Source: an uncultured Candidatus Rokubacteria bacterium
GTDB lineage: Bacteria > Methylomirabilota > Methylomirabilia > Rokubacteriales > DASRDR01
DNA length: 64,000 nucleotides
Assembly: GCA_963805625.1 (NCBI GenBank)
Contig: CAWDVE010000012.1
Location: forward strand, 64,001 to 128,000
Direction: 5' to 3'
A program made the translations under genes and the position numbers. Position 1 is the stretch's first letter. Each line of letters begins with the position of its first letter. Of this stretch, positions 3,030 to 20,523 are shown piece after piece. The notes below the pieces were generated by a model. It saw nothing but the letters and a program-made list of their open reading frames with translations. It made no database searches and was not told the origin of the DNA.

Positions 3030-5480
3030 GTGCCCGCCCGCGCGCCTCCGGCTCCCCTCCCCGCTGGTCGCGTGGGCACCCTTCGCCGGAAACGTCCACC
3101 ACGACTGGCTCCGCTCCCCGACGGTCGGCCGGGCCCGCGTCCGAGGCTTCACGCGAACCGGGTGGGGCCGGCGCTTCGCCCGATCCTGACTCGCGACGCC
3201 GGGTCACCGCCTACCTCCGCCCCGCCTCCGACCCCTGGTGGCTCGGACCGCGAGGTCGCCGCCCCGGTTCTCGGTCTCCCGCGCCGTCGGCGCGGAGGGG
3301 CGCGGGCCGAGGCGACGGCGCTCCTCGCCCTCTACGGGTTGCTCCTCGTCGTCCCGTCGGCCAACTACCACCTCTTCGACGGCCTGCCTGCGAGCCGCGT
3401 GCCCGAATTCCTCGGGCTCGCCCTGCTCATCCCTTTGGTCGTCAGCCGGGCCCTCCGCCGCCTGTACGGCCGGCTCGTCGGCGGGTGGCCGGTGACGCGA
3501 CGTGCCCTCTTGGCGCTCGGCGCGGTCGCCCTCGCGGCGAAGGTCGTCCTGCTCGCCTCGGGGACTCATGCGGGCTTCCTGGCTTGCTACCGTTCGCCCA
3601 TCGCCGCGCCGCCCGCCGGACCCTGCGAGAAGTCATACGAGAACCCGTTCTCCCGCTTCGGCGTCACGCGGATCGACCGGCGTCTCGACTTCATCCCGGC
3701 CAACTGGGACCTGTCCTTCATCAACTCGCTGCGGTTCAACATCTATCACTGGGTCGCGGGCAACGTCGTCCGGGATCGTCTCCCCCTGGCCGCGACCTGG
3801 ACCGGGACGGTCGCGCGCTCGCGCGCCTGGACGGCCGAGGTACGCTACGTCGGCGCCGCCACCGTCCAGGTCGACTCGATGGAGCCGACGAGGCTCCGCC
3901 CCCGCTACGACACGCTGGCCGTCGCCCACGTGCCCATCCCCGCCGGCCGCCATCGCCTCGTCGTCACCTACGAGTTCGACGACGGCTCCCGAGTCGGCGA
4001 CGGGCACACGCGGGGCCCCTACGCCACCATTCGGCTGGCCCGGCTGAGCGAAGCGCCGGGCCCGGCGATGCCGGTGAGGCCGGTGCGACCGCCGCGGGCG
4101 TGGCGGTGGACCGGCGCGGCGGTCGACGCGGTCGTCGTCCTCCTCGCGGCGACGGTGGCCGGGGCGTGCGCCGTCGCTATGGCCCGCGAGGCGTGGATCC
4201 CGGCCGTCGTCGCGGTCGCGGCGGCCGGCAGCCACCTCTGGGACGGACGGCTGCCCGTCGTTCCGTCGCACTCGTGGTTCTTCCTCCTGCTCGCGCTCCT
4301 TTTCGCGCATCTCGCCCTGGGCGTCCGCCCGCAGCGGCTGCTGGGCGCCTACCTCGGCATCCTTGCGGCAGCCTTCTTCCTGGCGTGGCGGCGACTCGGC
4401 CGGTTGAACGTCGTCCAGTACCGGGCGGCCGGCGATGACTGGCTGACGTACGAGTCCTTCGCGCGGTCCATCCTCGAGACCTGGTCGCTCCGGGGCGCCG
4501 AGGACGTCTTCTACTACCAGCCACTCTTCCGCTACGTCCGCTTCGCCGAGCATTTCGTGCTGGGGGACGGCGATCCGTTCCTCCTGACGTGGGCGGTCGT
4601 GACGCTCACGTGGAGCCTATTCTGGCTCGGCGCGGTCGCGATCGGGCGGCGGCGCGCGTCGTTCCGGACCATCGTCCTCACCTTCGCCGGTCTGCTGCTG
4701 GTGCTGCTGGCGACCTCCCCGACGGTCCTCGACCTGGTGCACGCGGGAGTCTCCGAGTATCCAACCTGGATCGCGCTGCCCTTCTTACTGCCGATGCTCT
4801 TCGTGTCGTCCTCGACGAGGGCCTGGCTGCTGGGGGCGACCCTGCTGGGCCTCTCGCTCCTGACGAGAACGAACCAACTGCCGGCCGTCCTGGCGACGCT
4901 CGGGCTTTTCCTGTGGCGGGGCTGGCGGATCCGACCCCGCGCGGCCATCGCGGCCGGGCTCATGTTCGGCGCTGTCGCGCTGCTTCCCACGCTTCACAAC
5001 TACTACTACGGCGGTCGCCTGGTGCCGCTGACGACCAGCGCCGGGATCCCGGCGAATCTCGTGCTCCCGCCCGTGCGGTTGCTCGACGTCGCCCGCGACG
5101 CGGAGGTGCGGACGCGGCTCCGGACGCAGGTCGAGCGGATGCTGTACGTCGGTGGGTCCGACCGCGTCTTCGGGATGGCGGTCCGCGGGCTGCAGGTGCT
5201 GTGGGTGGTCACGGTCGGGGCGTGGGCGGTGACTGGCCGTGCGAGCTTGCCCCTCGCGCTACTGGTGGGCCTCCCCGTCTGCTACCTCGTTCCCCACGTC
5301 TTCTACCAAGCGACGCACGGCTATCCGCGGCACTTCCTCATTGGCTACCTCGCCATGGGGGCGGTCGTCCTCCTGGCCGAAGCGGGCTCGCGAGGCATTG
5401 CCCGGTCCGCGGCTCCGGCGATCGAATCGACGCCGCGAGAAGCGCCCATCATCCGGACGAGTCGGGGACCAATGGGCTGA
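3030..5480 (+). CDS. Large polytopic membrane protein, GT-C-like (start uncertain, probably downstream near 3250-3320)
   Basis: Many hydrophobic helices, a periplasmic loop, and a GDDWLTYESFARSIL motif resembling the GT-C acidic loop. Confidence 0.6.
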   Translation: MPARAPPAPLPAGRVGTLRRKRPPRLAPLPDGRPGPRPRLHANRVGPALRPILTRDAGSPPTSAPPPTPGGSDREVAAPVLGLPRRRRGGARAEATALLALYGLLLVVPSANYHLFDGLPASRVPEFLGLALLIPLVVSRALRRLYGRLVGGWPVTRRALLALGAVALAAKVVLLASGTHAGFLACYRSPIAAPPAGPCEKSYENPFSRFGVTRIDRRLDFIPANWDLSFINSLRFNIYHWVAGNVVRDRLPLAATWTGTVARSRAWTAEVRYVGAATVQVDSMEPTRLRPRYDTLAVAHVPIPAGRHRLVVTYEFDDGSRVGDGHTRGPYATIRLARLSEAPGPAMPVRPVRPPRAWRWTGAAVDAVVVLLAATVAGACAVAMAREAWIPAVVAVAAAGSHLWDGRLPVVPSHSWFFLLLALLFAHLALGVRPQRLLGAYLGILAAAFFLAWRRLGRLNVVQYRAAGDDWLTYESFARSILETWSLRGAEDVFYYQPLFRYVRFAEHFVLGDGDPFLLTWAVVTLTWSLFWLGAVAIGRRRASFRTIVLTFAGLLLVLLATSPTVLDLVHAGVSEYPTWIALPFLLPMLFVSSSTRAWLLGATLLGLSLLTRTNQLPAVLATLGLFLWRGWRIRPRAAIAAGLMFGAVALLPTLHNYYYGGRLVPLTTSAGIPANLVLPPVRLLDVARDAEVRTRLRTQVERMLYVGGSDRVFGMAVRGLQVLWVVTVGAWAVTGRASLPLALLVGLPVCYLVPHVFYQATHGYPRHFLIGYLAMGAVVLLAEAGSRGIARSAAPAIESTPREAPIIRTSRGPMG

Positions 5481-7452
5481 CCAGTCGTGCGAAGTAGGCG
5501 CTTTTCTCGACGACGTCCGCGTAGGACCCCGCCGCGGTGACCATGCCGTCTTCGAGGACGATGATCTGATCGCAACCGGCGATGGCGGAGGCCCGGTGCG
5601 TCACGGCGACGACGGTCCGCGGCTGATCGCGTCGGAGGGCCGCCCTGATCACCGTGGCCTCCCCATACGGATCCAGGGCGGAGGTCGCCTCGTCCAGGAC
5701 GAGGAGGCTGGGGTCGGAGTAGAGCGCCCGCGCCACGGCCAACCGCTGCCGCTGGCCGCCGCTCAGCGCCGACCCTCGCTCACCGAGCTGCGTGTGGAGC
5801 CCGCGCGGGAGCTGTTGGACCAGCTCCCAGAGCCCGACCTCCTCGAGCACGTGCTCGACACGGTCCTCGTCGATCGCGTCGGCGAAGAGCACGACGTTCC
5901 GGAGGATCGAGTCGTTGAAGATGTAGGGCTCCTGGGACACGACCCCGACGCCAGCCTGCCAGCCAGGTTCGAGTCCGCCCAGCGGCCGGCCGTCCAGTAG
6001 CACCTCGCCCGAAGTCGGCTCGAGCAATCCGACCAGGAGATCGACGAACGTGCTCTTCCCGGCACCGCTCGGCCCGACGATCCCCACGAAGCTGCCGGCC
6101 TCGATTCGGACCGTCACGTCACGCAGGGCCGGACGCTTCGACTCCTCGTACCAGGACGACACGCGCCAGAACTCGATGGCGACGTTCAGCACGGGAGGCC
6201 TCTTCGCCGGGCCGGTGCCGCCAGTGTATCGAGGACCGGCGGCGCCTCGAACGGGGACGTCCTGCAGCACCTGGTCGACGAACGGGAGACCGGCGCGAAC
6301 ATTCGCGAGATTGGTCGCGCTCCGGCCCGCCAGGGGCAACAGCCGGACGAGCGCGTACGCGAAGAGTCCGAGCATCGTCAGGACACGAGGCGTGTCGTAT
6401 TCCAGGCCGATCGTGAAGATGATGAGACTCGCGACTAGTATCATCGTGACACCCTCGATCACGATGCGCGGCAGGTCGACGAGGATCGCCCGATAACGGT
6501 TGGCGGCGGCCACCTTGGCGCGCTCCTCCCGGTGGCTGGACACCACGGGCGCCTCATGGTGGCGGAGGGTGATCTCGCGGCGTCCCTGCAGGACCTGATC
6601 CACGAACAGGTTCGCCGAGCGATCGTGCCGCTCGATGAGCGCGGTCGCTTCGTGGAGACGCGGGTTGACCGCCCTGACCAGCACGACGATCACGCCGGCC
6701 ACGAACGCCGCGGCGGCCAGCGTCCCCCACGGCGAGGCCACCACCATGACCGAGAGGATCGATGCGATGACGGCCGCGTCCGTAAGGAACTGGACGCCGG
6801 GCCGGAACACCTGCCACGCGACGAGCGTGGCGAGCTGCGAGACCCGCCGCTGGAGGTCCGCGACGCGGCGCTGCCTGAACCTGGCATACGGCATGCTCAC
6901 GTAGGCCCAGAGGAGGGCTTCGCCGATGACGATACCGGTCTCGACCGTCGCCGAGGAGGCGGCCGCCGTCAGCGCGAGAGTCAGGGCGGCCCGGAGCAGG
7001 AAGACGGCGACGACCACGGCCGTCACCAGAGCGGCCGTCGACGCCCCCACGAGGAGGAGCGGCGCTTCCGTCGCCCACGGCAGCAACGCCCGGGAGCCGG
7101 ACCCGGCCGACTGCGTCGCCAGCCGGATCACGTTGAGGAAGAGCGCGGTCGTGGCCAGCTCCGCCAGGGAGCAGAGACCGGTGAGGACCATCAGAAGAAC
7201 CCATCGGCGACGGACACGGCGGGGCAGCAGCCTGTAGATGGCCCGCGCCCGCGCCCACACCGACGCGGACGTGACCGGATCGCCCGCGTCCACCCGTGGC
7301 ATCACGATCGGCGGCGCGACGCTCGACCGCTCAGGGAGCGCGCCGGGACACGACCCCACGAATGGCTCGTCGTGGGCGGCCCCATACTTTCGGTGCCCGC
7401 CGTCGGACCTCGGCCTCGAGGCCGCCCGGACATCGATGGCGGCCCGATCCAC
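5449..7452 (-). CDS. ABC exporter, fused permease/ATPase (alternative start 7302)
   Basis: TM domain, Walker A GPSGAGKST, signature LSGGQRQR, Walker B LLVLDEATSALD. Confidence 0.93.
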   Translation of the reverse strand: MDRAAIDVRAASRPRSDGGHRKYGAAHDEPFVGSCPGALPERSSVAPPIVMPRVDAGDPVTSASVWARARAIYRLLPRRVRRRWVLLMVLTGLCSLAELATTALFLNVIRLATQSAGSGSRALLPWATEAPLLLVGASTAALVTAVVVAVFLLRAALTLALTAAASSATVETGIVIGEALLWAYVSMPYARFRQRRVADLQRRVSQLATLVAWQVFRPGVQFLTDAAVIASILSVMVVASPWGTLAAAAFVAGVIVVLVRAVNPRLHEATALIERHDRSANLFVDQVLQGRREITLRHHEAPVVSSHREERAKVAAANRYRAILVDLPRIVIEGVTMILVASLIIFTIGLEYDTPRVLTMLGLFAYALVRLLPLAGRSATNLANVRAGLPFVDQVLQDVPVRGAAGPRYTGGTGPAKRPPVLNVAIEFWRVSSWYEESKRPALRDVTVRIEAGSFVGIVGPSGAGKSTFVDLLVGLLEPTSGEVLLDGRPLGGLEPGWQAGVGVVSQEPYIFNDSILRNVVLFADAIDEDRVEHVLEEVGLWELVQQLPRGLHTQLGERGSALSGGQRQRLAVARALYSDPSLLVLDEATSALDPYGEATVIRAALRRDQPRTVVAVTHRASAIAGCDQIIVLEDGMVTAAGSYADVVEKSAYFARLVSPLVPDSSG

Positions 7453-7537: not shown

Positions 7538-8728
7538 TCAGTGATGATGGTGCTCGTACGCCCCCGCGGCGAGCCGGAAGAGGCGAAGGGGGTAGTGGAG
7601 GAATGACAGCGCGCGCGGCAGTCTCCGCGCTGCCCAGTCCTCGACCGTGAGGGTCGTCATCGCCAGCCAGCAGTACCGGACCCGATGGCGCCACCGCTCC
7701 CGGACGCGGAGCTGGAATCGGGCCTGCTCGAGGAGGCCGGAGGGGCGGCCGTCGTCCCGAAACAGCCGCGCCCGGACCGCGGCTGCCAGCGTAGGGACGA
7801 CGGCGTCCACCTCCGCCCGCCGCCGCACCGGCCCGGGCATCGGGGCGCCGAGCAGGTCCGCGGCCACTCGGAGCCCCAGCGCGAGCATCCGCTCGCTGGC
7901 AGCTTGCCGGGCCTCCGCCACCATTCGCGCCCAGTCGAGGCCGGGCCGGGCCCGCGTCAGCTCGGCGATGTCGCAGATCCAGATCAGGCGCTCCCACATG
8001 TGCTTGGCTCCGTGCTCGCAGAGGCTCGGCAGGAGGACCTCGGGCGCTAGCGTCGTGACGGTGGTGCCGGCAATCGTGACCGGCTCGAGCCGCTCCCAGA
8101 GTCGCTTGGGCTCGAGGAGCAGCGAGACGTGCCGCGGCGAGATCTCCCAGTGCAGCTCCACCATGGCCGATCGGTCGGGGCGCACCAGCGAGTAGGCGTG
8201 CTGGGACTCGACCAGCGCCTGCTCCTGGCTCTGGCTGAGCGCCACGTTCGGACGGAAGCCCTCGGCGACCAGGACGTCCTTCGCGCGTAGCACCTCCTGC
8301 TTGTTCACCAGGATGTCGAGATCGGAGAAGTCCCGGAGGCCGACGTGGCCGTAGGCCGTCATGGCCAGGGCCGGGCCGCGGTAGGGGATGGCCGGGATGC
8401 CCTCAGCGGTGAAGCGTTTCAGGATGGAGCAGAGCTGAAGGGCCAGGAAGAGGTTGCGGCGCTGGGTCTTCTCGAAGCTTTCCCTGAGGCGCTCGGGCAC
8501 CCCGGCGGGGAGCAGGCCGGGCTCCACCCCCTTGAGGTGCCAATGCACCAGTGGCAGCACCCCGTGCCATCGGGCCGTTCGGAGGATGTACTCCCAGTCG
8601 AGCTCCCGGTCGAGAAGCCCACGGAGGCGCTCGGCCGTCGGCGGGTCCATCCGCGTGCGCGCGCAGGCCAGCAGGAGCTCGCCCTCGGGACGGGAGCTGG
8701 TGGGTCCCGCCGGGGTGCCGGGTGACAC
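7538..8728 (-). CDS. Nucleotidyltransferase family protein (NTP_transf_5 type, commonly lasso-cluster associated)
   Basis: LDWEYILRTARWHGVLPL, YRGPALA..AYG..GLRDFSDLDILV, VELHW, HGAKHMWERLIWICDIA. Confidence 0.85.
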   Translation of the reverse strand: MSPGTPAGPTSSRPEGELLLACARTRMDPPTAERLRGLLDRELDWEYILRTARWHGVLPLVHWHLKGVEPGLLPAGVPERLRESFEKTQRRNLFLALQLCSILKRFTAEGIPAIPYRGPALAMTAYGHVGLRDFSDLDILVNKQEVLRAKDVLVAEGFRPNVALSQSQEQALVESQHAYSLVRPDRSAMVELHWEISPRHVSLLLEPKRLWERLEPVTIAGTTVTTLAPEVLLPSLCEHGAKHMWERLIWICDIAELTRARPGLDWARMVAEARQAASERMLALGLRVAADLLGAPMPGPVRRRAEVDAVVPTLAAAVRARLFRDDGRPSGLLEQARFQLRVRERWRHRVRYCWLAMTTLTVEDWAARRLPRALSFLHYPLRLFRLAAGAYEHHHH

Positions 8729-9017: not shown

Positions 9018-9293
9018 ATGTCCAATGCGTTCGTCGCAGCAAGGGGGTTGGAAACGACCCCCCTTGAGGAAGGCGCCGTCCTGTTCCATCCAAAGCTCGG
9101 CAAGTTCGTCATGCTCAATCGATCGGCGGCCTTCCTTTGGAGCGAACTGGCGACGCCCAAGACGGAGGAGGAGCTGGCCCGTCGCTTCGCGGCCAACTTC
9201 ACCGATGCGGCGCCGGAGACGTCTCGGCAGGACGTGCGTGAGGCCCTGGCCAAGCTGCGGGAGTTGGAGCTCGTCTCCCCGGCTGAGGCCTAA
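9018..9293 (+). CDS. PqqD-family RiPP recognition element (RRE, lasso B1-like)
   Basis: 91 aa with RBS GAGGGA. LEEGAVLFHPKLGKFVMLNRSAAFLWSELATPKTEEELARRFAANF..RQDVREALAKLRELELV matches the PqqD winged-helix pattern. Confidence 0.9.
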   Translation: MSNAFVAARGLETTPLEEGAVLFHPKLGKFVMLNRSAAFLWSELATPKTEEELARRFAANFTDAAPETSRQDVREALAKLRELELVSPAEA

Positions 9294-9319: not shown

Positions 9320-9466
9320 ATGGATCAGCAGGCGACGGCGCGGTACGAGCGGCCCTCGATCACAGTGATGGACGAAGAGGAGCTGCTGAAGGTCTTCCAG
9401 ATGACGGCAGCGGAGATCAGCGTGGCGTCCTGCTGGTGGAACGCCTGCCCGACCGGTTGCCCGTAA
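9320..9466 (+). CDS. Putative RiPP precursor peptide, 48 aa: MDQQATARYERPSITVMDEEELLKVFQMTAAEISVASCWWNACPTGCP
   Basis: Translated by hand (below the ORF track cutoff). Strong RBS GGGGAGG at 9306-9312, YxxPx(I/L) RRE-binding leader motif, Cys/Trp-rich C-terminus, directly after the RRE gene. Confidence 0.88.
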   Translation: MDQQATARYERPSITVMDEEELLKVFQMTAAEISVASCWWNACPTGCP

Positions 9467-9601: not shown

Positions 9602-10420
9602 ATGGGAGCAGCGGCTCAGTACGCCACGAAGGTCGTACGTGGAGTGACTCTCCGTGCGGACCCGGCCCGCGAGGCCTGCTTCAAGGTCGTGAACGACGCC
9701 ACCGATCTGGCGGACTATGCGGACATGTCGCCGGTGGCCCGGCGTCAGCGGCTCCACAAGCACATGCACAACGAGATGCAGAGTCTCGAGATGGCGGCGC
9801 AGTCCGTGGCCGACTTCCCCGACGCGCCGTGGGACGTCAGGATGGGGCTGGCCCGCCAGTGCTGGGACGAGACCCGGCACTCTCAAATCCTCCACCGGCG
9901 GCTCCGGGAGGTCGGGGGCTACAAGGGCGAGTTCCCGGTGATGAACTTCGAGTGGAGCATCACCTGCATGATGGACTCTCTCTCCGCGCGGCTGGCCATC
10001 CAGAACCGCACGTTCGAGGGGGGGGAGATCGACCTCCTGCGGCATCTTGTCGGCGTGTGGCGGGAAGAGGGCGACAACGACACCGCCGATCTCCTCGACG
10101 GGATCCTCGTCGACGAGATCCAGCACGTCCGCCTGGCCAACGAGTGGTTCAAGCAGATGTCCCGGCAGGATCCGACGGTGCTGCTGAAGCTGGCCGCGGC
10201 CGTCAACTTCCTGAAGCGCGTCACCCAGGCGTTCCAGCCGGCTCCCGGCGAGGTGAATGCCGCCGGCGTGAACCTCACCGGCTTCGAGCATGTCGAGATG
10301 CTCTCGAACGTCGAGGACCGGCTCCGCGCGGGATTCACGGAGCGGGAGATCGCCCAGATCCAGCTTCAGGAGAGCCAGCTGCGGGCCTCTGCGGCAGCAG
10401 AGAAGACCGCCGTATCCTAG
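9602..10420 (+). CDS. Ferritin-like diiron protein (DUF455-like), copy 1
   Basis: HNEMQSLE..ARQCWDETRH..NRTFEGGEID..LVDEIQH: two ExxH motifs in a four-helix-bundle spacing; RBS upstream of ATG 9602. Confidence 0.82.
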   Translation: MGAAAQYATKVVRGVTLRADPAREACFKVVNDATDLADYADMSPVARRQRLHKHMHNEMQSLEMAAQSVADFPDAPWDVRMGLARQCWDETRHSQILHRRLREVGGYKGEFPVMNFEWSITCMMDSLSARLAIQNRTFEGGEIDLLRHLVGVWREEGDNDTADLLDGILVDEIQHVRLANEWFKQMSRQDPTVLLKLAAAVNFLKRVTQAFQPAPGEVNAAGVNLTGFEHVEMLSNVEDRLRAGFTEREIAQIQLQESQLRASAAAEKTAVS

Positions 10421-10437
10421 ATACGGCCGGCGACCGG

Positions 10438-11547
10438 GTGTCAACCGCCGTCGGACTCGGCCGGTGGAACGCGACGCTCGAGCGCGTCCTGGAGGCGCCG
10501 GAGCCGCGGCCCCGCCAGACTGAACCAGTCTGGTTCCGGTTCGGCGACGGGTTCTTGGAGGTCGTCTCCGACCACGAGCCGCTCCTCCGCGACCTCGAGG
10601 CCTTCTACGGGGACTGCGGGATCGCCGAGCCTCCCGCAGAGGGATGTCGGGTCCGCTGCACCGCGAGCCTGCTCCCCGGCGTCCCGTTGCTGTCCCTCTC
10701 GTTCAGCGGGCCACGCCAGCCCGATCTGATCGAGGTCGCGCGGAGCCCCTACCGGTTTCGCCGGCGCGAGCCGTACATCGAGGCTCCCGGCCCGGCGCCC
10801 GGCTGGCGCCTGCTGGTGAATCGCGATGCGGACGACCGCCTCCTCATCGCGACCAACGGCCGGGTGAGCTTGGTCAACCTCGACGAAGCGCCGGCCGAGT
10901 TCGTCGTCGACCTGGTCGTCTCCGCGGCCCAGAGTATCCAGACCGGGGTGCTGTTCCTCCACGCCGGCTCCGTGGGCGTCGGCGGAACGGGCGCCCTGAT
11001 CATCGCCCCGACCAACGGGGGCAAGTCGACGACCACCCTCGCCCTGGCGCGGCGCGGCCATGCCTTCCTCGGCGACGACGTGGCGGCGGTGCGGCTGGCC
11101 ACCCGCGAGCTGCTGCCGTTCCCGAGGTCGGCCGGGCTGCGGGAAGGATCCCTGGCCCGATCCCTGGAGGGGCAGGTGCAGGGGTGCCGCCACGTGCGCG
11201 CCACGAACCGTCACGGGATCGAGCGGGCCGTCGTGCGGGTCAGCGATCTCTTCCCCTGGTCGGTCAGCGGCCCGCTGCCCCTCCGGTTCGCGTTCGTCCT
11301 CGACGGGCTGGCGGAGAGCGCCGCGATCTCGGAGTTCCGGCCTGGGCTCGGCGAGCTGCCCCGGCTCCAGTCGACGGTGACCGACACGTCGACATCCTGG
11401 GGGCTCTCGCCCGGGCGTGACCTGATGCTGTTCCTCTCGGTGGTGAACCTTCTGTCCGGCCTGCGCTGCCATCTCGTGCAGCGCGGCTCCCCGGACGAGA
11501 CCGCACGCGTCATCGAAGCCGCCATCATGGAGGGAACATGTACCTGA
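10438..11547 (+). CDS. HPr-kinase-like P-loop kinase (lasso-cluster type)
   Basis: LFLHAGSV..GALIIAPTNGGKSTTTLALARRGHAFLGDD; GTG start inferred. Confidence 0.82.
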   Translation: MSTAVGLGRWNATLERVLEAPEPRPRQTEPVWFRFGDGFLEVVSDHEPLLRDLEAFYGDCGIAEPPAEGCRVRCTASLLPGVPLLSLSFSGPRQPDLIEVARSPYRFRRREPYIEAPGPAPGWRLLVNRDADDRLLIATNGRVSLVNLDEAPAEFVVDLVVSAAQSIQTGVLFLHAGSVGVGGTGALIIAPTNGGKSTTTLALARRGHAFLGDDVAAVRLATRELLPFPRSAGLREGSLARSLEGQVQGCRHVRATNRHGIERAVVRVSDLFPWSVSGPLPLRFAFVLDGLAESAAISEFRPGLGELPRLQSTVTDTSTSWGLSPGRDLMLFLSVVNLLSGLRCHLVQRGSPDETARVIEAAIMEGTCT

Positions 11548-12098
11548 ACGTGAAGGAGCGGGGCGACCACGTAGCCACCTTTCGCTGGATCGAGGTGCGC
11601 CTGATGGAGATGTTGGCCGCCTGGGTCCCCACCACGCCCGAGATGGAGGTGAAGCTCGTCTTCGGAGCCCACATCTGGGAGGCCGCGCAGCATGCGGACG
11701 CGCTGGGGAAGCGGACCCACGAGCTGCGGCTGCCCCTCCACGACAGCCTCGAGCCCGCCCGTGGGTACGTCGACTTGCTCACGGAAGTGGCCAGGACGAC
11801 CGACACCAGCAAGCGGATCGCCGCGTTCTACGATTGCCTGCTCCCGGGCCTCGAGCAGCGCTTCCGGCGTTACATCGAGCGGGTCGACACGCTCCTGGAC
11901 GGCCCCACCGTCCGGATCCTCGAGCGGATCATGGGCGACATGGCCCGCATGACGGCCGACTGTCGCGCCCTCCTAGAGGAGGTGCCGGCCGTCAAGCTCA
12001 AGGACCACAAGTGGCTCGATGCGCTGCGCCAGCGCGAGGCAGGTCTCGGTGACATCATCGTCCACCGGGTGTCGAGCCCGGCGGCGGTCCCGGCGTGA
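11538..12098 (+). CDS. Divergent ferritin-like protein (copy 2) lacking the second ExxH
   Basis: WIEVRLMEMLAAW..EVKLVFGAHIWEAAQHADALGKR resembles ferritin-like helices 1-2; overlaps both neighbouring genes. Confidence 0.65.
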   Translation: MYLNVKERGDHVATFRWIEVRLMEMLAAWVPTTPEMEVKLVFGAHIWEAAQHADALGKRTHELRLPLHDSLEPARGYVDLLTEVARTTDTSKRIAAFYDCLLPGLEQRFRRYIERVDTLLDGPTVRILERIMGDMARMTADCRALLEEVPAVKLKDHKWLDALRQREAGLGDIIVHRVSSPAAVPA

Positions 12099-12808
12099 GC
12101 GTCATGGCCAGCATCGGCACGATCGTGGTGCGCGGTGGCGTCACTCTGCGAGCGAGCCCGGCTCGAGACTCCTGCTTCAGGATCGTCACCGACCAGGCCG
12201 ACATGGTGAAGCATCCCGACGGGTCGCTCGAAGCGCGTCGGGAGCAGCTGCACAGCGATGTGAACAACGAGCTCCAGAGCCTGGAGATCGCCGCCCAGTC
12301 GATCGTCGACTTTCCCGAAGCGCCCTGGGAGCTGCGCCTCGAACTGGCCCGCCAGTGCTGGGACGAGGTACGCCACGCCCGCCTGTTCCTCGGCCGGCTT
12401 CTCGCGCTCAAGGGATACCTGGGGGAGTTCCCCATCATCAACCAGGAGTGGGGCGTCGTCTGCATGTTCGACTCCCTCCCGGCGAGACTTGCGGTCCAGA
12501 ACCGGATCTTCGAGGGCCTGTCACTCGACGTCTTCAAGGAGAGCGTCGAGGTGTGGGCGGGCTGGGGCGATCCCGAGACGGCCGAGGTCATGGAAGGCGT
12601 CATGGTCGACGAGATCCGGCACGCGGCATTTGCCCAGGAGTGGCTTCGCCGCCTGGGAGCCGGTAACCCGGGCGTGACGCTCAAGGCCGTGGCGGCCATG
12701 AGCCAGCTGAAGACGATGAGCATCGCCTTGACCCCCGCCGGGCAGAAGATGGAGCACGAGATCCCGGTCAACACCGAGGACCGGCGTCACGCCGGGCTTC
12801 CCATCTGA
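12095..12808 (+). CDS. Ferritin-like diiron protein (DUF455-like), copy 3
   Basis: NNELQSLE..ARQCWDEVRH..NRIFEGLSLD..MVDEIRH; clear paralog of 9602-10420. Confidence 0.82.
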   Translation: MSVMASIGTIVVRGGVTLRASPARDSCFRIVTDQADMVKHPDGSLEARREQLHSDVNNELQSLEIAAQSIVDFPEAPWELRLELARQCWDEVRHARLFLGRLLALKGYLGEFPIINQEWGVVCMFDSLPARLAVQNRIFEGLSLDVFKESVEVWAGWGDPETAEVMEGVMVDEIRHAAFAQEWLRRLGAGNPGVTLKAVAAMSQLKTMSIALTPAGQKMEHEIPVNTEDRRHAGLPI

Positions 12809-12816
12809 GTTCGCCC

Positions 12817-13560
12817 ATGAGTACGCCTCAGGACGCCGCTCGCCCTCCGCTCGACCCGGCGCTGTTCGCCGATGGCCCGGCGCGCGATTCGCGGTTCGCG
12901 GTGAAGGACCGCTGGATTGAGATGGCCAACACCCCGGCCGACCATCCCCTTCATCAGATGGAATTCACGCATCGCCAGATGAACGAGGAGATCAACGGCC
13001 TCGAGTGCTCGGCGCGCGGCCTGAGCGACTTCCCGGACGCGGCCTGGGAGCTCCGGATGGCGCTGGCCAGGCAGTGCGTCGACGAGGCGCGCCACGTCAA
13101 GATGTTCCGGCGCCTCCTCGAGCGCCTCGGAGGGCACGTCGGGCAGTTCCCGGTGCTCAACTTCCAGTACCGCATCATCACGAAAGCGGACAGCCTGATC
13201 GGCCGGCTGACGATCCAGAATCGTACGTTCGAGGCTGGCGGGCTCGACGCCGTCTCCGCGGTGGTCGAGCAGATGCGGGCGAGGGGCGACGACGACCTCG
13301 AGCTGTTCTTCGACTCCCAGCTGGCCGACGAGATCCTCCACGTGCGCTTCGCCAACGAGTGGATTCGCCGGCTGATCCACGAAGACCCGCGAAACGTTCT
13401 CCGGATGGGGAGCGCGATGACGGCCGCGGCGAAGGCGTTCAAGCAGGTGATGGGAAGGGAAGGGACGGAAGGAGTCAGCTATCCCACCGACAGACAGGCT
13501 CGTTTGGAGGCGGGGTTCACCCCCAGTGAGGTCGAGATGGACGCGGGGTCCAAGGCCTAG
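12817..13560 (+). CDS. Ferritin-like diiron protein (DUF455-like), copy 4
   Basis: MNEEINGLE..ARQCVDEARH..NRTFEAGGLD..LADEILH. Confidence 0.82.
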   Translation: MSTPQDAARPPLDPALFADGPARDSRFAVKDRWIEMANTPADHPLHQMEFTHRQMNEEINGLECSARGLSDFPDAAWELRMALARQCVDEARHVKMFRRLLERLGGHVGQFPVLNFQYRIITKADSLIGRLTIQNRTFEAGGLDAVSAVVEQMRARGDDDLELFFDSQLADEILHVRFANEWIRRLIHEDPRNVLRMGSAMTAAAKAFKQVMGREGTEGVSYPTDRQARLEAGFTPSEVEMDAGSKA

Positions 13561-13594: not shown

Positions 13595-14200
13595 ATGACG
13601 AGGTCGCTCAGCGAGGCGGACACGGCGACGTCCCGTCCTGATCCGGTCCAGGCGGTCGCGGCTTTCTTCCGGGAGGATCCGGCGCGCATCCTCGCTGTCG
13701 CTTCGAGCCTCCGAGGCCCCGACCGCAGCATCGAGTCCACCGTCGAGGGTAAGAGCATGGGGCGGACGCTCCCGCCCGGCTCTCGGATCCGCATCGAGCT
13801 GGCCGATCGACCCGGTTACGAGGTCGGGGAGGTGGTCGCGTTCCTGGCCCGGGGCAAGGTCGTCGTGCACCGGGTGGTGCACAAGAGCCAGCGGGGTGCG
13901 GCTCGCGGCCGGCTCCTCACGCGGGGCGACGCCGCGCTGGTCCCCGACCCGGCGATCGACGTGGCGAGCGTCCTGGGCGCGGTGACCGCGATCGACCGTG
14001 ACGGAGGCTGGGTGCCGCCGGATGGACGGCCCCGCCGATCGCTCCCCGCTCGAGTCGTGGCCTCGCTCGCGCTGGCCATCGTCGCGCGCGTGCTGGAGGC
14101 GAGCCCTCGGGCCGCGGACGTCGTCGTGCGGCTGCTCCACCGAGGACGGCCGCTCCATGCGGCGTGCCTGCGTCACGGCGGGCGAGGGGTGGCACCATGA
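13595..14200 (+). CDS. S24/S26-family (signal-peptidase-like) serine peptidase
   Basis: VEGKSMGRTLPPGS (catalytic Ser), GEVVAF..VVVHRVV (His), LLTRGDA..PD. Confidence 0.78.
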   Translation: MTRSLSEADTATSRPDPVQAVAAFFREDPARILAVASSLRGPDRSIESTVEGKSMGRTLPPGSRIRIELADRPGYEVGEVVAFLARGKVVVHRVVHKSQRGAARGRLLTRGDAALVPDPAIDVASVLGAVTAIDRDGGWVPPDGRPRRSLPARVVASLALAIVARVLEASPRAADVVVRLLHRGRPLHAACLRHGGRGVAP

Positions 14201-14961
14201 AGCTGGTCGCCCAGACCTCGCAGTTCCACGTCTATGACGACGTCCTGCTGGAGAAGGATTTCCGCGCGGTTTGGAACTACGTCCAGCTCGAATCGTACGT
14301 GCCGGTACACCACGACGGCTGGGTGAAGGTCTGGCGCATCTCCGACGGCGTCCCGCTGGGCGCGTTGGCGACCGTGCTCTACGAGAGCCCCAAGCGTCCG
14401 GCCGGATCGGAGGACGCCAAGGGCACCCGCATCTATCCCACGCACACGGGGCTCGACCGGGTGCTGGAAGCCCTCAGGACCCATGCCGACCAGCTGGCCG
14501 ACCTCGTCGGCAAGTGGGGCGCCGATTTCGACAACGTGAGCGCTCGTGCGTTCCTCTATCCGCAGGGGACGGGGCTGTCCTGGCACGAGGACGCGGTCAA
14601 CTACACCGGCGGGTACGCCTTCTACGCGCATCCGGAATGGAACGTCCAGTGGGGCGGCGAGCTCCTCGTCGCCGACGAGTCCGCCAGGTCCCAGCATTTC
14701 GAGGACGACCGGCTCCCGGTTCTTACGCGCACGGAGGAGGGGCTCCGGCTCACCAAGGTGCGCATCCCGCCGTTCCTCGACAATGCGCGCCAGAATACCG
14801 TGCTCGCGCAGCGCGGCATGGGATGCTACATCACTCCGAAGCCCAACCGACTGGTCGTGATCGCTGCCGGGAACGCCCACATGATCAACCGGGTCCACCC
14901 GGCCGCCGGAGACCACGTCCGCTGCACGATCGCGGGCTTCTTCATCTCCTCCAAGGTTTGA
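14197..14961 (+). CDS. 2OG-Fe(II) oxygenase (prolyl-4-hydroxylase-like)
   Basis: LSWHED (HxD), YAHPEWNVQWGGEL, PKPNRLV..HMINRV..RCTIAGF. Confidence 0.85.
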   Translation: MKLVAQTSQFHVYDDVLLEKDFRAVWNYVQLESYVPVHHDGWVKVWRISDGVPLGALATVLYESPKRPAGSEDAKGTRIYPTHTGLDRVLEALRTHADQLADLVGKWGADFDNVSARAFLYPQGTGLSWHEDAVNYTGGYAFYAHPEWNVQWGGELLVADESARSQHFEDDRLPVLTRTEEGLRLTKVRIPPFLDNARQNTVLAQRGMGCYITPKPNRLVVIAAGNAHMINRVHPAAGDHVRCTIAGFFISSKV

Positions 14962-15017: not shown

Positions 15018-16721
15018 ATGCGGGGTGGCTTCGTCGTCTGCCTGAACGGAAACGGGCGCCTTCTCGACCAGGTCGTCGAGCACGTGCGCTGGCACCACGG
15101 CAAGGGCATCCGGGATCACCGCGATGGCCTGGAGATCGCCGCCCTCGTCGACGGCGCCGACGGCCCGGCCATCGAGATCGGAGCCGGCCGGACCGTCCTG
15201 GTCCATGGCGCCGCCCCGGCGCCCCTCGCCGAGCTCCAGCGCCGCGGGACGCGGTTCGCGGCGATCGAGTGGGACGGAGTGCGATTGCGCGCCAGCCGGG
15301 ATCCGATGGGCCTCGCCCCGCTGTTCTACCGGGCGTATCAGGGAGTCGTGTGGCTTGCCACGGAAGTGCAGCCCCTGGTCGCCCTGGGACGCGCGGCTCC
15401 GGACCTGGAAGCGCTCACGGCCAGGACCGCGTTCACCCCGATCGACGATCGGACGGGCTGGGAGGGCATCGGGCGCGTGCTCCCCGGGTCGACGCTCGAG
15501 TTCGGCCCCGATCGGCAAGTCTCCTCCGCCCGCTACTGGCAACCGGCCGAGGCCCTCGGTCGGTACCGGGGCAGTCGCGCCGAGGCGCTGGCGGAGTTCC
15601 GGGAGCGGTTCCGCACGGCGGTGGGGCGGTGCTACGAGCCCGGTGGCGGCATCCTGCTCAGCGGGGGTCTCGACTCGGCGGCGGTGGCCCTGACGGCGGC
15701 CGAGCAGGGGCAAACCCGCCCGCATCTGGTGCATGTCCACTTCCCCGACCTTCCCGAGACGCACGAGCAAGGATACGCCAGTGCGGTGGCGGCCGCCGTT
15801 GGCGCTCCGCTCCACGTCGTCCCCGGGCAGGTCGACCCCTGGGACGTGGACCCCGAGCTCGACGGCTGGGGAGGGATCGCTTACAGCTGGGTGCCCTACG
15901 GCATGGAGGACCCCGCCCTGGCCCACATGGCGGCCTCGGGTGTCACGGTGGCGCTGGACGGCCACGATGGAGATGGCGCCCTCGGTCCCCTCGGCTCCAA
16001 CTGGGGCGACATGATCCTGAAGGGGGAGCTTCGCCAAGTCGCCGCGCTGGCCGTGCGCCATGGCGCGTGGGCGCTCGTCCGCGGGGTCGCCGTCGATTTC
16101 CTTCCGCCGTACGCCTGGTTACGCCGGCTGGCCGGCCGCCCTCCCCGAGCAACCTACATGCAGTCGGTCGCTCACTACTTTCGCGGGCCCCTCCGCGACC
16201 GCAGCCTCGCGGCCGACATCGAGCGGTGGACGTGGCCGTCGAGGCGCTGGGGGGTGCGGCAGCTCCAGCCGCTGCTTCCGCGTGCGACGATCTCCTTCGA
16301 GCAGAAGGAGCTCGAGGCGGCTCGCCACGGCCTCGACATGCGCCATCCCTTTGCCGACCGTGAGCTGGTCGAGTTCCTCATCTCGCTCCCGTCGGCCGTG
16401 AAGAGCGATCCGATGCGTCCCAAGGCGATCCTCGTGGACAGCCTGAGCGACCTGCTTCCCAAGGCCGTCCAGCAGCGCCCAAAAAGCGACTACATGGCCG
16501 CCGTCCGACAGCGGGTGGACCCGGCCGCCTGCATCGAGAGGATCCGGGCCTCGGGCGTTCGCCTGCCGGGCATCGAGTACGGACGACTCCTGGACGACGC
16601 CCGGCTCGATCCCAACGGGCTGCCGCTGTTCTTCCTCGTCAATCTCACCCGGATCCACGCGTTCGCCCAGCGGGCCCTCGAAGCGGCCGGCGGCTCCGGG
16701 AAGGGGGCGCCCCATGTCTGA
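15018..16721 (+). CDS. Asparagine-synthetase-like ATP-dependent enzyme of lasso-cyclase type (no N-terminal catalytic Cys)
   Basis: RDPMGLAPLFY, ILLSGGLDSAAV (PP-loop), LDGHDGD, MRHPFADRELVEFLISLP; N-terminus is MRGGF rather than MCGI. Confidence 0.85.
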   Translation: MRGGFVVCLNGNGRLLDQVVEHVRWHHGKGIRDHRDGLEIAALVDGADGPAIEIGAGRTVLVHGAAPAPLAELQRRGTRFAAIEWDGVRLRASRDPMGLAPLFYRAYQGVVWLATEVQPLVALGRAAPDLEALTARTAFTPIDDRTGWEGIGRVLPGSTLEFGPDRQVSSARYWQPAEALGRYRGSRAEALAEFRERFRTAVGRCYEPGGGILLSGGLDSAAVALTAAEQGQTRPHLVHVHFPDLPETHEQGYASAVAAAVGAPLHVVPGQVDPWDVDPELDGWGGIAYSWVPYGMEDPALAHMAASGVTVALDGHDGDGALGPLGSNWGDMILKGELRQVAALAVRHGAWALVRGVAVDFLPPYAWLRRLAGRPPRATYMQSVAHYFRGPLRDRSLAADIERWTWPSRRWGVRQLQPLLPRATISFEQKELEAARHGLDMRHPFADRELVEFLISLPSAVKSDPMRPKAILVDSLSDLLPKAVQQRPKSDYMAAVRQRVDPAACIERIRASGVRLPGIEYGRLLDDARLDPNGLPLFFLVNLTRIHAFAQRALEAAGGSGKGAPHV

Positions 16722-17475
16722 CGCCGCGGCGGGGACGGGTTCGGCCGCGTCCGCGCTCGCGCGGGACGGCTTCGCCGGTCCGTTCCCGCTCGGGACCCCG
16801 GCCCAGATGAGCGTCGTGGCCCTCCAGCTGTTCAAGTCGGTGTTCACCCGGCCGGGACCCTTCGCCGACGACCCCTTCCTCGATCGCCACCTCGATTCGC
16901 CGCTGGTCGCCCACCTGGCCACGCATCCCGCGATCCTCGCCCGGGTCGAGCCGCTCCTGGGCGGCGACCTCGTCGCCTGGCGATCGATCTTCTTCGCCAA
17001 GGGCCCGACGAGCCGGGAAGTGCCGTGGCATCAGGACGGCCACTTCTGGAACCTCGATCCGCCGATCACGCTCACCGCGTGGCTCGCGATCGACCGCGCC
17101 CACGGCGCCGATCACTGCATGGAGGTCGTGCCCGGCTCCCACCGGACGGCGCTTCCGCACGTCCCGTCGGCTCCGGGATCCCAGTTCCCGGAGAGCACCG
17201 CCCCCGGGTCCTTCGACCTCTCCCGAGCGATCGAGCTGCCGGTGGATGCCGGGATGTTCGTCCTGTTCGACCAGCGCCTCGTGCACCGTTCGAAGGGAGG
17301 CGGCCAGGCGCGGCGCCTCGCCCTTTCGGTGAGGATCGCCCCCGCGCACGTCCGGATCCCCCCCCACTTGCTGCCTCCGGGTGGCCGCGTGCTGCCTTTT
17401 GGGTGGAGGTCCCTCGCCGAGTCACCCCTCGAGGCCTCCCGGTCCGCCTCGTCCGACCCGCGCCGCGCCTCGTGA
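16714..17475 (+). CDS. Phytanoyl-CoA dioxygenase (PhyH) family Fe/2OG enzyme
   Basis: FFAKGP..VPWHQD..W, TAWLAID..CMEVVPGSH, LVHRS..RRLALSVR. Confidence 0.87.
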   Translation: MSDAAAGTGSAASALARDGFAGPFPLGTPAQMSVVALQLFKSVFTRPGPFADDPFLDRHLDSPLVAHLATHPAILARVEPLLGGDLVAWRSIFFAKGPTSREVPWHQDGHFWNLDPPITLTAWLAIDRAHGADHCMEVVPGSHRTALPHVPSAPGSQFPESTAPGSFDLSRAIELPVDAGMFVLFDQRLVHRSKGGGQARRLALSVRIAPAHVRIPPHLLPPGGRVLPFGWRSLAESPLEASRSASSDPRRAS

Positions 17476-18341
17476 CGCGCCCCGGCGACGCCAGCCCGGC
17501 CGACGCCGCCATGCGGGAGGCGCGCGAGCAGTCCTGGTTCCACACGATCAATCTTCCCGACGGCAGCAGCACGCGCGGTGTCTTCGACAACCGGGGCGTG
17601 GCCCGGCTGGTGCAGTGGCCGGCCGGCCTGCCCGGCGGCCGGTGTCTCGACGTCGGGACGTGTGACGGCTTCTGGGCCTTCGAGATGGAGCGCCGCGGCG
17701 CCGCCGAGGTCACCGCGATCGACGTGGACGACCCCGCCCACCTCGACTGGTCGTGGGAGTCCCGCCGCAACCCAGACGCCACGCAGGCATGGCGGGCGCG
17801 TCGGGGCCACCGCTTCGACATCGCCCGCCGCGCTCTGGGGTCGCGGGTGAACCGGGTGGCCTGCTCCGTCTACGATCTCGACCCGTCCGTCCACGGCCGG
17901 TTCGACGTGGTCTTCTGCGGGACCCTGCTGGTGCATCTCCGGGACCCGGTCCGGGCGCTCGAGCGCATGCGCGAGGTCTGCGCGGGCGAGCTCGTTCTCG
18001 TCGAGTGCATCGACGCGGTCCTGGACGTGGTCGCCTGGCGGGTGCCTTGCGCCCGATTCACCCCGGCGGCCGAGCAGTGGTGGCGGCTCAATCGGGCCGG
18101 GCTCCTCCGCATGCTGCGGGTCGCCGGCTTCGACGTGCTGTGGGCGAGCCGCCGGTTTCACACGCCGTTCGGGCCGAGCGTGCTGCTTCACCCGTCCCGG
18201 CGGTTCGGGCCGCTCCGCGCCGGCCGGGCGGCGGTGGCCCAGGTGCTGCGGGCGTTCCCGAGCGCCCCGGTCCTGGCCGATGCCGCCGGGCTGGCGCTGG
18301 GCACGTACGACGTCGCCGTCCGCGCCCGGCCCCGACCGTGA
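17472..18341 (+). CDS. Class I SAM-dependent methyltransferase
   Basis: WFHTINLPDG..T.G, CLDVGTCDGFWAFEMERRGA, FDVVFCGTLLVHLRDP; overlaps the previous stop (GTGA). Confidence 0.85.
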   Translation: MTRPGDASPADAAMREAREQSWFHTINLPDGSSTRGVFDNRGVARLVQWPAGLPGGRCLDVGTCDGFWAFEMERRGAAEVTAIDVDDPAHLDWSWESRRNPDATQAWRARRGHRFDIARRALGSRVNRVACSVYDLDPSVHGRFDVVFCGTLLVHLRDPVRALERMREVCAGELVLVECIDAVLDVVAWRVPCARFTPAAEQWWRLNRAGLLRMLRVAGFDVLWASRRFHTPFGPSVLLHPSRRFGPLRAGRAAVAQVLRAFPSAPVLADAAGLALGTYDVAVRARPRP

Positions 18342-18468: not shown

Positions 18469-20523
18469 CTAGTGTCGCCGAGGATCCAACCCGAGGAATG
18501 GACCAAGCGGCGGGAGGCCATCGGCCGGGCGTCCGCCGGGCCCTGTCATGGGGATCTCGTCGAGGCGCTCGCACCCGCCGATCCCTAAGCCGCACTTGGG
18601 CCCGATCGAGTCAGCGGAGCTGCCGGTCGGCACGAGCAGCTGCGGGTGATCGAACGGTGCCTGCTCCTGGCGCACCCGCTCGTCGGTCAAGCTCCGCAGG
18701 AAGTCAACCAAGCGCTGGCCGTCGACCGCGTCGAACTCCATGAAGGACATGATCGGGTTCACGTCGGCGGCATTGACATCGGTGAAATCTCCGCGGCGGC
18801 GGTAGAACTCGAGGACCTGCTGCAGGGTGGCCTGGCCCCCGTTGTGAAAGTACGGCCCGGTGAGCTCCACGTTGCGGAGGAAGGGGATCTTGAAGGCTCC
18901 CTGCACCAGATCCCGGCCGTCGATCGGGCAGTCGCGGTTCGTGGCATTGCCACAAGGGGGGAGCGGCGGCGCGAACAACAGACCAGCGACCGCCGCCCGG
19001 GTGATGCTGAGCGGTTGACCGAGGACGACGGCGCCGCGGCCCACGTCCTCGCTGGTAGGACGCACCCCGATGTTGGCGAAGCCCGCTTCGTTGAACGCGA
19101 CGATGGGCATCTCGATCAGCTTGCCGTCCACGACCTGCACGGTCGTGGACAGCACGGGCCCGGCGGCGGCAGCGCCCAACTCGGGCCCCCCGTGGCAGAG
19201 GGCACAGTTGCCCCTTCCGACTCCGGCGAAGACGTCCCCGGCCGAAAAGGGATTCTTGATGAACGCGATCAGCCCCAGAAGCTGATCCTCGGTCAGGGCC
19301 GCATCGTCGCCATCCATGAAGCGGTCGAACGGGGTCTGGTCGGAGACGAGCAGTGACTCGTAGAGCTGGATGGCGAGACCGAAGAAGAGGCTGAAGTTGT
19401 TCTCCATCTGCGTGAAATCCCCCGCCCGCTTGGTCGAGGCCCACCACCGGGGTTCGAAGGCCCGCTCGATGAGGGCGGCGTACGTGGTGTCGAGCCCCGG
19501 CGGGCCACCCACGCGGGCGTCCGAGAGGGTGGTGGCGCGTGACAGGGGCCCCAGCACGCTGTCCCGCGGCGAGACGAGCTGCAAGCCAAGCGGTCGAAGC
19601 GAGAGCATCTTTCGTCCGAGCTGGGCGAACGTGCGACCATCGAACGACATCTCGACCGCCGAAAGCGGCGGCTCGACGGCCTGTGAGGCCAGGCTGGCGT
19701 GGTCGATGCTCACCGGGATCTTGACGAGGGTGGCATTCGTCGGATCCTCGACGAACACGCCCGCGGTACCATCGAGCGGCCCGAACGGGCTCGACCCGTT
19801 GAAGCCGCTCTTCGCCCGACCGTCCCAGAAGCTGTCCGGGCTGAAGACGGCGTTGATGACCGAGGGTGCGTTGCGGGGCTCGACCTGGCGAACAGCCCTG
19901 CCGTCTACTTCGAACACCGGATCGGACCTGGGCTCGCCGGCATCCGCGGCGTTGCCGGCGACGATCGCCGTGAGCGTGGCCCTGAATGCGCCCTGGGAGC
20001 CGACGACGTCATTGGTGTCGGCCAGCACGGTTCGTCGAGAGAAGTCGAGCGGGCCCCCGGTGTCGACGCGGTGGAGGGGGAAATCGCTCGGCTCGAGCGC
20101 GTAATTCGGAGCGAAGCGCGGGTGGCCGGTCTCGGTCCTCCTCACCCCCGCACCCGGGTTGCCGAAGCGAGTGTCGCCAGCGTTGACGCCCGGGTTGATC
20201 TGGTTCCTGACCCGGCTGTCGGCCCCGGCGTGGAAATGACAGGAGGCGCACGCTTGGCCATCGGAGCCCACCTGCATGTCCCAGAAGAGGGCCTTGCCGA
20301 GCTGACGGGCGGCAGTCCGACCGTCGTCGGTGTCGCGGATGAACTCGTGGAGATTGCTCGGCGTGGGCACGGCAACCCGGGCCAGGCTACCCAGTCTGGC
20401 GGCGCGTGCCTCCGCCCGGATGCCGGTCCGATTCAGCCTGGCACCGACTTCGCCGCCGGCGTGTGCGCTGCCCAGGACAACGAGGCAGAGCCCCCAGGCG
20501 AGTGACGGCGCCGCCCACGTCAT
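18469..20523 (-). CDS. Secreted di-heme cytochrome c peroxidase / MauG-superfamily protein
   Basis: Signal peptide, LGKALFWD..CASCH, second heme motif CALCH, FKIPFLRNVELTGPYFHNG. Confidence 0.88.
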   Translation of the reverse strand: MTWAAPSLAWGLCLVVLGSAHAGGEVGARLNRTGIRAEARAARLGSLARVAVPTPSNLHEFIRDTDDGRTAARQLGKALFWDMQVGSDGQACASCHFHAGADSRVRNQINPGVNAGDTRFGNPGAGVRRTETGHPRFAPNYALEPSDFPLHRVDTGGPLDFSRRTVLADTNDVVGSQGAFRATLTAIVAGNAADAGEPRSDPVFEVDGRAVRQVEPRNAPSVINAVFSPDSFWDGRAKSGFNGSSPFGPLDGTAGVFVEDPTNATLVKIPVSIDHASLASQAVEPPLSAVEMSFDGRTFAQLGRKMLSLRPLGLQLVSPRDSVLGPLSRATTLSDARVGGPPGLDTTYAALIERAFEPRWWASTKRAGDFTQMENNFSLFFGLAIQLYESLLVSDQTPFDRFMDGDDAALTEDQLLGLIAFIKNPFSAGDVFAGVGRGNCALCHGGPELGAAAAGPVLSTTVQVVDGKLIEMPIVAFNEAGFANIGVRPTSEDVGRGAVVLGQPLSITRAAVAGLLFAPPLPPCGNATNRDCPIDGRDLVQGAFKIPFLRNVELTGPYFHNGGQATLQQVLEFYRRRGDFTDVNAADVNPIMSFMEFDAVDGQRLVDFLRSLTDERVRQEQAPFDHPQLLVPTGSSADSIGPKCGLGIGGCERLDEIPMTGPGGRPADGLPPLGPFLGLDPRRH

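Follow-up and report, generated by a model that had tools for sequence, protein, structure and literature searches.

The DNA analysed here is a 64,000-nucleotide stretch (the window) from an uncultured Candidatus Rokubacteria bacterium (contig CAWDVE010000012.1, positions 64,001 to 128,000). It carries a conserved gene cluster in which a recognition element (RRE) for peptides that are made on ribosomes and modified after translation (RiPPs), a precursor peptide, an HPr-kinase-like protein, four ferritin-like proteins and an S26 peptidase are encoded together. That this is a genuine RiPP cluster is close to certain. Three of the ferritin-like proteins (copies 1, 3 and 4) are members of the family DUF455 (PF04305), and the fourth, a ligand-deficient partner, is undetected by the family model. 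Based on sequence comparison, structure models and analogy, we lean slightly towards a pathway in which three DUF455 diiron oxidases and a structural beta partner would oxidise the Trp-Trp pair of the precursor.

Composition and conservation of the cluster

The core of the cluster was annotated as follows; ligand+3 denotes the residue three after the Glu ligand of helix 3.

9018..9293, plus strand: RRE of the PqqD family, 91 amino acids (PF05402, E 3.8e-15)
9320..9466, plus strand: precursor peptide, 48 amino acids, with a YxxP leader motif, FQMT and a core with Trp-Trp (33 distinct homologues)
9602..10420, plus strand: DUF455 copy 1 (class A), 272 amino acids (PF04305, 99 bits); six ligand positions and Glu142 at ligand+3
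10438..11547, plus strand: HPr-kinase-like protein with P-loop (GGKS) and GDD motifs (PF07475, E 2e-5; TIGR04352, E 1e-9; both below cut-off); start uncertain
11538..12098, plus strand: ligand-deficient ferritin-fold partner, putative beta subunit, 186 amino acids (structure model, ligand loss, fusions, peptide-free pair)
12104..12808, plus strand: DUF455 copy 3 (class C), 234 amino acids (PF04305, 87 bits); six ligand positions, Ser at ligand+3
12817..13560, plus strand: DUF455 copy 4 (class D), 247 amino acids (PF04305, 88 bits); six ligand positions, Gly at ligand+3, Gln168
13595..14200, plus strand: S26/SpI-like protein (archaeal-type signal peptidase), putative leader peptidase, with Ser-Met, His and RGD motifs (TIGR02228, E 3e-9, below cut-off)

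The four ferritin-like reading frames lie on the plus strand where a first-pass annotation of the same DNA had placed them. The span 9602..13560 assigned to them there does hold all four, and it also encloses the HPr-kinase-like gene (about 10438-11547). The partner gene starts 10 nt before the end of the kinase gene, and a GTG at 12095, just ahead of copy 3, overlaps the stop of the partner gene. Against NCBIfam, no family above cut-off was found for the four ferritin-like proteins or the precursor.

For comparison, ten genome loci with copy 1 were collected (Burkholderiales, Steroidobacteraceae, Stellaceae, Acidimicrobiia, Chloroflexota, Ca. Acidoferrum and Ramlibacter monticola among the taxa), together with 80 metagenome loci, the best of 496 that have the partner. 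The combined set held 88 partner-containing loci. Loci were picked by similarity to the cluster proteins and include near duplicates, so the counts given below are not independent; those for gene order take in the loci with sufficient flanking DNA. The kinase gene stood directly upstream of the partner gene in 69/70 loci, which argues that its position between copy 1 and the partner in the window is not due to chance. A catalytic copy followed the partner directly in 80/80 loci. The precursor was found in 31/31 partner loci with enough upstream DNA and the S26 peptidase in 35/35 loci with room, and 29 of 35 precursor loci had an RRE homologue. RRE, precursor, kinase, the four ferritin-like genes and the S26 peptidase thus form one conserved cluster.

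RRE and precursor shared a single reading frame (about 152 amino acids) in 9/35 loci, and eight of these nine had no Met in the linker. The loci concerned were L003:7337-7861, L005, L006:7508-7966, L031, L033, L036, L044, L067 and L004. Contigs of three RNA runs from three studies span RRE and precursor of close relatives; these were not taken as showing transcription. A promoter and terminator scan gave no signal exceeding that of shuffled sequences.

Metal ligands of the DUF455 copies and the partner protein

For the three catalytic copies, the ExxH motif pairs are DETRH/DEIQH (copy 1), DEVRH/DEIRH (copy 3) and DEARH/DEILH (copy 4), as first annotated. A helix-1 Glu (E58) and a helix-3 Glu (E139) are also present in each, which fills all six ligand positions. 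The copies share pairwise identities of 39-48%, and with the scores listed above all pass the Pfam gathering cut-off for DUF455 (34.3 bits). Full-length catalytic copies were aligned (147 sequences: 144 from the loci and the window's three; 38 of class A, 61 of class C, 46 of class D and two extra copies). The six ligand columns (E, ExxH, E, ExxH) were 100% invariant in 147/147 sequences, and both DExxH motifs were present in 144/144 locus copies (37, 60, 45 and 2 by position). From this pattern, the copies very probably bind a dimetal centre.

The residue at ligand+3, which shares a helix face with the helix-3 Glu, differs by class. It was Glu (E142) in 38/38 copy-1 sequences, Ser in 92% of 61 copy-3 sequences and Gly in 46/46 copy-4 sequences. 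Copy 4 also had Gln168 in 46/46 sequences and no Trp88. We take ligand+3 to be the position of the extra Glu ligand of rubrerythrin and of Thr199 of the soluble desaturase, where it would tune the chemistry; no paper was found to confirm this. Because the residue beside the metal site is fixed by class, the copies are read as doing different steps. They are probably specialised and not redundant, in line with the earlier suggestion that the paralogs had divided their roles.

In a tree calculated with FastTree, copy 4 formed a single clade (46 sequences, support 1.0). Copy 1 grouped with the additional fourth copies found in L008 and L009 (0.995), a clade nested inside copy 3. In these two loci the fourth intact DUF455 gene, derived from copy 1, lies behind the peptidase gene (L008:12828-13631, L009:12700-13527).

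Structure models were made for copy 1 and the partner (predicted local distance difference test scores of 92 and 94). Both are ferritin-like and their best structural matches in VIA are ferritin-like proteins (Z up to 15.6 and 15.8), which bears out the fold that had been claimed for catalytic and partner proteins from their motifs. Structure prediction had been proposed as a check together with Foldseek; with the latter, neither model had a match at E<=0.001. For copy 1, the bundle carries extra C-terminal helices, like class-II diiron enzymes, and Dps-like proteins, mini-bacterioferritin and aldehyde-deformylating oxygenases tied as best matches (Z 14.6-15.6). Copy 1 had no sequence relative in the PDB (best E 0.2, a bacterioferritin), and the partner profile had none either. 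The partner matched a Dps-like protein (Z 15.8, 140 residues aligned, root-mean-square deviation 2.6) and chain B of toluene/o-xylene monooxygenase (1t0q_B; Z 15.4, 176 aligned, deviation 3.1) about equally well. We take 1t0q_B to be the beta subunit of the hydroxylase.

The Dps and bacterioferritin matches would also suit ferroxidases or peroxide scavengers of the Dps, bacterioferritin or rubrerythrin kind, standing as bystanders in a cluster of the linear polyphosphorylated peptide (LPP) type, and Glu142 of copy 1 presumably follows a rubrerythrin-like pattern (no paper was found for this). Such a role seems very improbable, since there are three diverged copies with class-fixed second-shell residues in a constant order between precursor and peptidase. 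The extra C-terminal helices of copy 1 and the absence of DUF455 from LPP clusters also argue against it. The copies are instead likely to modify the adjacent peptide.

The partner had been described as a ligand-deficient protein with a single EAAQH motif. Ligand loss was confirmed for four of the six positions (Ala49, Leu102, Met135 and Met138), with His52 kept and Glu19 variable; the Glu of EAAQH, though, is not a bridging ligand, as it aligns with the Asp of DExxH and the bridging position is Ala49. In an alignment of 87 partner sequences, His138 and a Glu at 101/102 were absent from 87/87 and Glu49 from at least 86/87, while His52 was present in 79/87 and Glu19 in 32/87. Conservation peaks at residues 21-60 (86-88% conserved). 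Likeness to the catalytic copies was marginal (BLAST E 0.14-0.55; hhalign against copy 1, E 0.13 over 43 columns), and DUF455 itself was not matched at E<=0.1. An Atlas search with the partner returned unnamed clusters (0.95-0.97); DUF455 clusters followed at 0.81, which is treated as a lead only. There are 984 partner homologues of similar length, and on account of this conservation a pseudogene or decaying copy was rejected.

A profile search with the partner gave 983 matches at E<=0.001. Among the 150 matches listed, 35 were of at least 290 amino acids, and 23 of these joined a partner-like N-terminal domain to a DUF455 domain in which both DExxH motifs are present. Most of the other 12 long matches had an unnamed C-terminal part; one was a kinase-plus-partner protein and one was apparently frameshifted. 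A partner-like domain followed by an unnamed C-terminal domain of about 130 amino acids, which has no Pfam match, was seen in P0269, P0279, P0286-P0288, P0338 and L105.

The partner-like gene also occurs at a second locus that has no peptide. In 61 genomes of one order, it lay directly downstream of 48/48 strong DUF455 matches, with the three cluster copies left out; being kin, these pairs are not independent. Leaving out the window's own genome and two unpublished ones (G038, G055) gave 45/45. Such a pair is almost universal in the order (L097-L105); that of the own genome (L106:8667-10028; G000:C13, about 270660-272030) has isc Fe-S genes, dinB and biotin-carboxylase genes in its neighbourhood. 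The partner of the peptide-free pair keeps E19, H52 and the second ExxH, and from these residues it may hold one metal.

Fusion with and adjacency to DUF455 are the usual signature of an obligate partner. We are therefore fairly confident, from the genomic pattern, that the partner binds a catalytic copy. It looks like a general structural (beta) partner of DUF455, and the non-catalytic subunit postulated in the first-pass annotation so gains genomic support from the fusions and the peptide-free pair. Alternatively, the partner could act alone on the peptide or the kinase, with the catalytic copies as homodimers or alpha-alpha heterodimers. The 10-nt overlap with the kinase gene, a kinase-partner fusion-like record (P0331) and the presence of a single partner gene beside three or four catalytic genes would suit such independence. 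It is nevertheless rated quite unlikely, given the 23 DUF455 fusions, the 48/48 adjacency to DUF455 and the lack of a peptide cluster in the five such regions read, and also since the partner residues W29, K39, G43, R59, L63 and P123 are common to the domains fused to DUF455.

Precursor peptide and proposed oxidation

For the precursor, 33 distinct sequences were aligned, and core residues were numbered on the presumption that cleavage occurs after Thr. The stretch from YxxP to Trp-Trp was constant in length in all of them, and Trp-Trp (W10, W11) was present in 33/33. A P, an L, an F and a Q as well as core A1, I4 and A7 were also invariant. The Cys before the Trp pair (C9) and S5 were each found in 30/33. 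The tail after Trp-Trp varied by lineage, as did the accessory enzymes.

The window has three core Cys and three intact catalytic copies, a coincidence that the first-pass annotation had called no more than suggestive. A Cys-directed pathway would have each intact copy oxidise one of the three core Cys in the manner of MNIO enzymes. Heterodimeric iron enzymes that act on peptide Cys are known (accessible part of PMC12141560), C9 is widely kept as stated above, and Cys number equalled the number of intact copies in 17/30 complete loci. In the other 13/30 the numbers differed, for example one Cys with three copies (L062, L095) and two Cys with four copies (L009). Alongside the same enzyme set, a single core Cys was counted in 2 precursors, two Cys in 10 and three Cys in 21; four intact copies stood in two loci, and in the 3/33 precursors with Val in place of C9 (L063, L088, L089) all enzyme copies were kept. 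One catalytic copy per Cys was therefore rejected, the mismatches being set against an invariant Trp pair, and the Cys-directed pathway as a whole is improbable; a single copy may act on the Cys before Trp-Trp. Invariance makes the Trp pair the best candidate target, and we hold with some confidence that Trp is the main one.

The three Val-Trp-Trp precursors end in Cys, and their loci carry a PF02441 flavoprotein. This is presumably the family of C-terminal Cys decarboxylases, and its presence with Cys-ending precursors fits the C-terminal part as the modified core. The same loci also have a fatty-acid-hydroxylase-family gene, and the precursor of L092 belongs to this subgroup.

The proposed pathway is as follows. 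By inference from the LPP system, the RRE would grip the YxxP leader, while phosphorylation of a hydroxyl would fall to the kinase and leader removal to the S26 peptidase. Core Ser5 is a candidate phosphorylation site on account of its conservation. The partner would attach to one or more of the catalytic copies in the way that PaaC binds PaaA, probably via its conserved helices 1-2; a single partner may be shared among the three copies or be bound to only one. By analogy with PaaA/PaaC, it would lend stability to the catalytic subunits, and these would oxidise an aromatic ring. Each copy would carry out a separate O2-dependent step, as suggested by its class-fixed ligand+3 residue. The favoured chemistry is that the tryptophans are hydroxylated on their indole rings; they and the Cys beside them may then be crosslinked oxidatively. 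As the cluster encodes no reductase, either a host ferredoxin or the peptide itself would supply the electrons.

Several points weigh against this pathway. Iron binding, activity and product are predicted from sequence, and the loci and peptide-free pairs behind the counts are in part closely related. The tie of copy 1 between Dps-like proteins, bacterioferritin and aldehyde-deformylating oxygenases means that its fold names no reaction, and Foldseek added no match. Copy 3 was not one clade in the FastTree run. Neither the window's cluster nor 128 accessory open reading frames from 22 loci (chosen by a codon heuristic) contained a ferredoxin or reductase, a point in which multicomponent monooxygenases differ. 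The Trp pair may be a recognition or folding element instead of the reactive site; A1, I4 and A7 are equally invariant. In the open-reading-frame listings of five of the peptide-free regions, housekeeping neighbours and no peptide cluster were found, so that as far as examined the DUF455-partner pair works without such a peptide.

With the same enzymes and substrate, the product could also be a small Trp-derived redox cofactor or quinone that is kept in the cell, following the logic of pyrroloquinoline quinone or mycofactocin. The constant leader-to-Trp distance and the many invariant residues across distant taxa would suit a cofactor, and quinone formation would be in keeping with three distinct oxidative steps on two indoles. 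A gene for a MauG-like di-haem protein lies close to the cluster both in the window and in three related loci. Most loci have no MauG-like gene, though, and neither a conserved cofactor-using enzyme nor a second peptidase was seen at the loci. The lineage-variable tail and accessory enzymes and the often adjacent exporter likewise speak against a cofactor, which leaves this outcome unlikely. Extending the oxidation pathway favoured here, we raise more speculatively that DUF455 is a general, so far unrecognised class of alpha/beta ferritin-like diiron oxygenases that has become a new class of RiPP-modifying enzyme in this cluster, where three specialised alphas share one beta and convert Trp-Trp without a dedicated reductase to a hydroxylated, crosslinked or quinone-type unit new to RiPPs.

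Relation to known systems and genes around the cluster

The LPP systems of Bacillota have a precursor with the motif YxxPxVLxHQxIxFETxxS, of which Ser3 is phosphorylated (Popov et al. 2026, accessible part of PMC13381572). The window resembles them in its discrete RRE, the YxxP motif, the HprK-like kinase, the SpI-like peptidase, the nucleoside triphosphate (NTP) transferase, the MsbA-like exporter and the glycosyltransferase setting. All five LPP core genes are found in the window, the kinase and SpI matches being below curated cut-offs. In contrast, DUF455 does not occur in the text or six supplements of PMC13381572, as far as these are accessible, whereas four ferritin-like genes form the core here. 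The precursor shares with the LPP motif only YxxP and the later FQ[MLI][TS]; the spacing is four residues longer, position +3 is E, Q or K with no Ser, and Trp-Trp is invariant.

In phenylacetyl-CoA epoxidase, the catalytic subunit PaaA and the ligand-less PaaC share one fold at about 17-20% identity, and an aromatic ring is oxidised (accessible part of PMC4498308). The cluster resembles this enzyme and the multicomponent monooxygenases in pairing a catalytic with a ligand-less subunit of one fold. It differs in having three catalytic paralogs per partner, no reductase or regulatory subunit and a candidate ribosomal-peptide substrate. Pfam assigned none of the cluster proteins to Phenol_Hydrox or PaaA_PaaC. 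By analogy, the system works like an LPP chassis that carries a PaaAC-like oxidase module.

MNIO (DUF692) enzymes have a TIM-barrel fold. MbnBC, TglHI and ChrHI are non-haem multi-iron oxidases of peptides; they depend on a non-catalytic partner but work without a reductant (accessible part of PMC12141560). In these, Cys is the usual target and the partner is unrelated to the enzyme, whereas enzyme and partner here have the same fold and the partner is a degenerate relative. Double-ferritin ferroxidases are described in the available part of 10.1101/2025.09.13.676036.

A lasso peptide was considered and rejected. Core positions 7-9, where a lasso peptide has its Asp or Glu acceptor, are A, G/S/A and C/V, and the window core has no acidic residue after position 3. 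No match to the B2 cysteine leader peptidase was obtained among the cluster proteins, and the asparagine-synthetase-like protein, which is missing from several loci, scored 92 of 525 bits with NF033535. An asparagine-synthetase-like RiPP enzyme can act on the C-terminus (accessible part of PMC13060819). As the LPP motif, the lasso features and the monooxygenase reductase were all lacking, the system was filed under none of these.

In the literature searched, from which subscription papers are largely missing, no paper linked DUF455 to RiPPs or described the cluster, and the main text of an RRE survey (PMC12710340) does not mention such a cluster. For DUF455, no function, structure, partner or substrate was found on record in the searchable literature and the PDB. 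The conserved RiPP cluster is apparently undescribed so far. DUF455 is widespread, and the locus offers a candidate partner together with a candidate substrate that is genetically encoded and has two invariant Trp; with these, co-expression and mass spectrometry can put the family to the test. The genes are available from a cultured bacterium, Ramlibacter monticola (L006). If the proposed pathway is true, ferritin-like diiron enzymes would join radical SAM, P450 and MNIO enzymes as RiPP tailoring enzymes, and several catalytic subunits on one scaffold would be an unusual layout.

On either side of the core, the following genes were annotated.

5449..7452, minus strand: MsbA-like ATP-binding cassette (ABC) exporter (PF00005, E 3e-31; PF00664 weak); start uncertain
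7538..8728, minus strand: NTP_transf_5 nucleotidyltransferase (PF14907, E 3e-60)
14197..14961, plus strand: 2-oxoglutarate/Fe(II) oxygenase-like protein, variable accessory (PF13661/PF13640, E about 6e-5); in few related loci
15018..16721, plus strand: asparagine-synthetase-like protein, common but not universal (PF00733, E 2e-29; lasso cyclase model NF033535, 92 of 525 bits)
16714..17475, plus strand: PhyH-type dioxygenase, variable accessory (PF05721, E 2e-22)
17541..18341, plus strand: S-adenosylmethionine (SAM) methyltransferase, variable accessory (PF13489, E 2e-8); start uncertain
18469-20523, minus strand: MauG-like di-haem cytochrome c peroxidase at the cluster's end; L033, L044 and L056 have similar genes

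An ABC gene lay near many related loci. At L078, a second PqqD gene followed by a radical SAM gene lies close to the cluster (15159-16414). The surroundings of the cluster consist of glycosyltransferase genes and transposases. Positions 1-960 and 21111-43561 of the window are rich in glycosyltransferase genes and also encode a second asparagine synthase, a JmjC protein and a DUF362 protein. Transposase genes of this region are located at 1563-2612, 25179-26390 and 29632-30345. Four tandem genes for ABC_sub_bind (PF04392) substrate-binding proteins were found at 59145-63280 on the plus strand.

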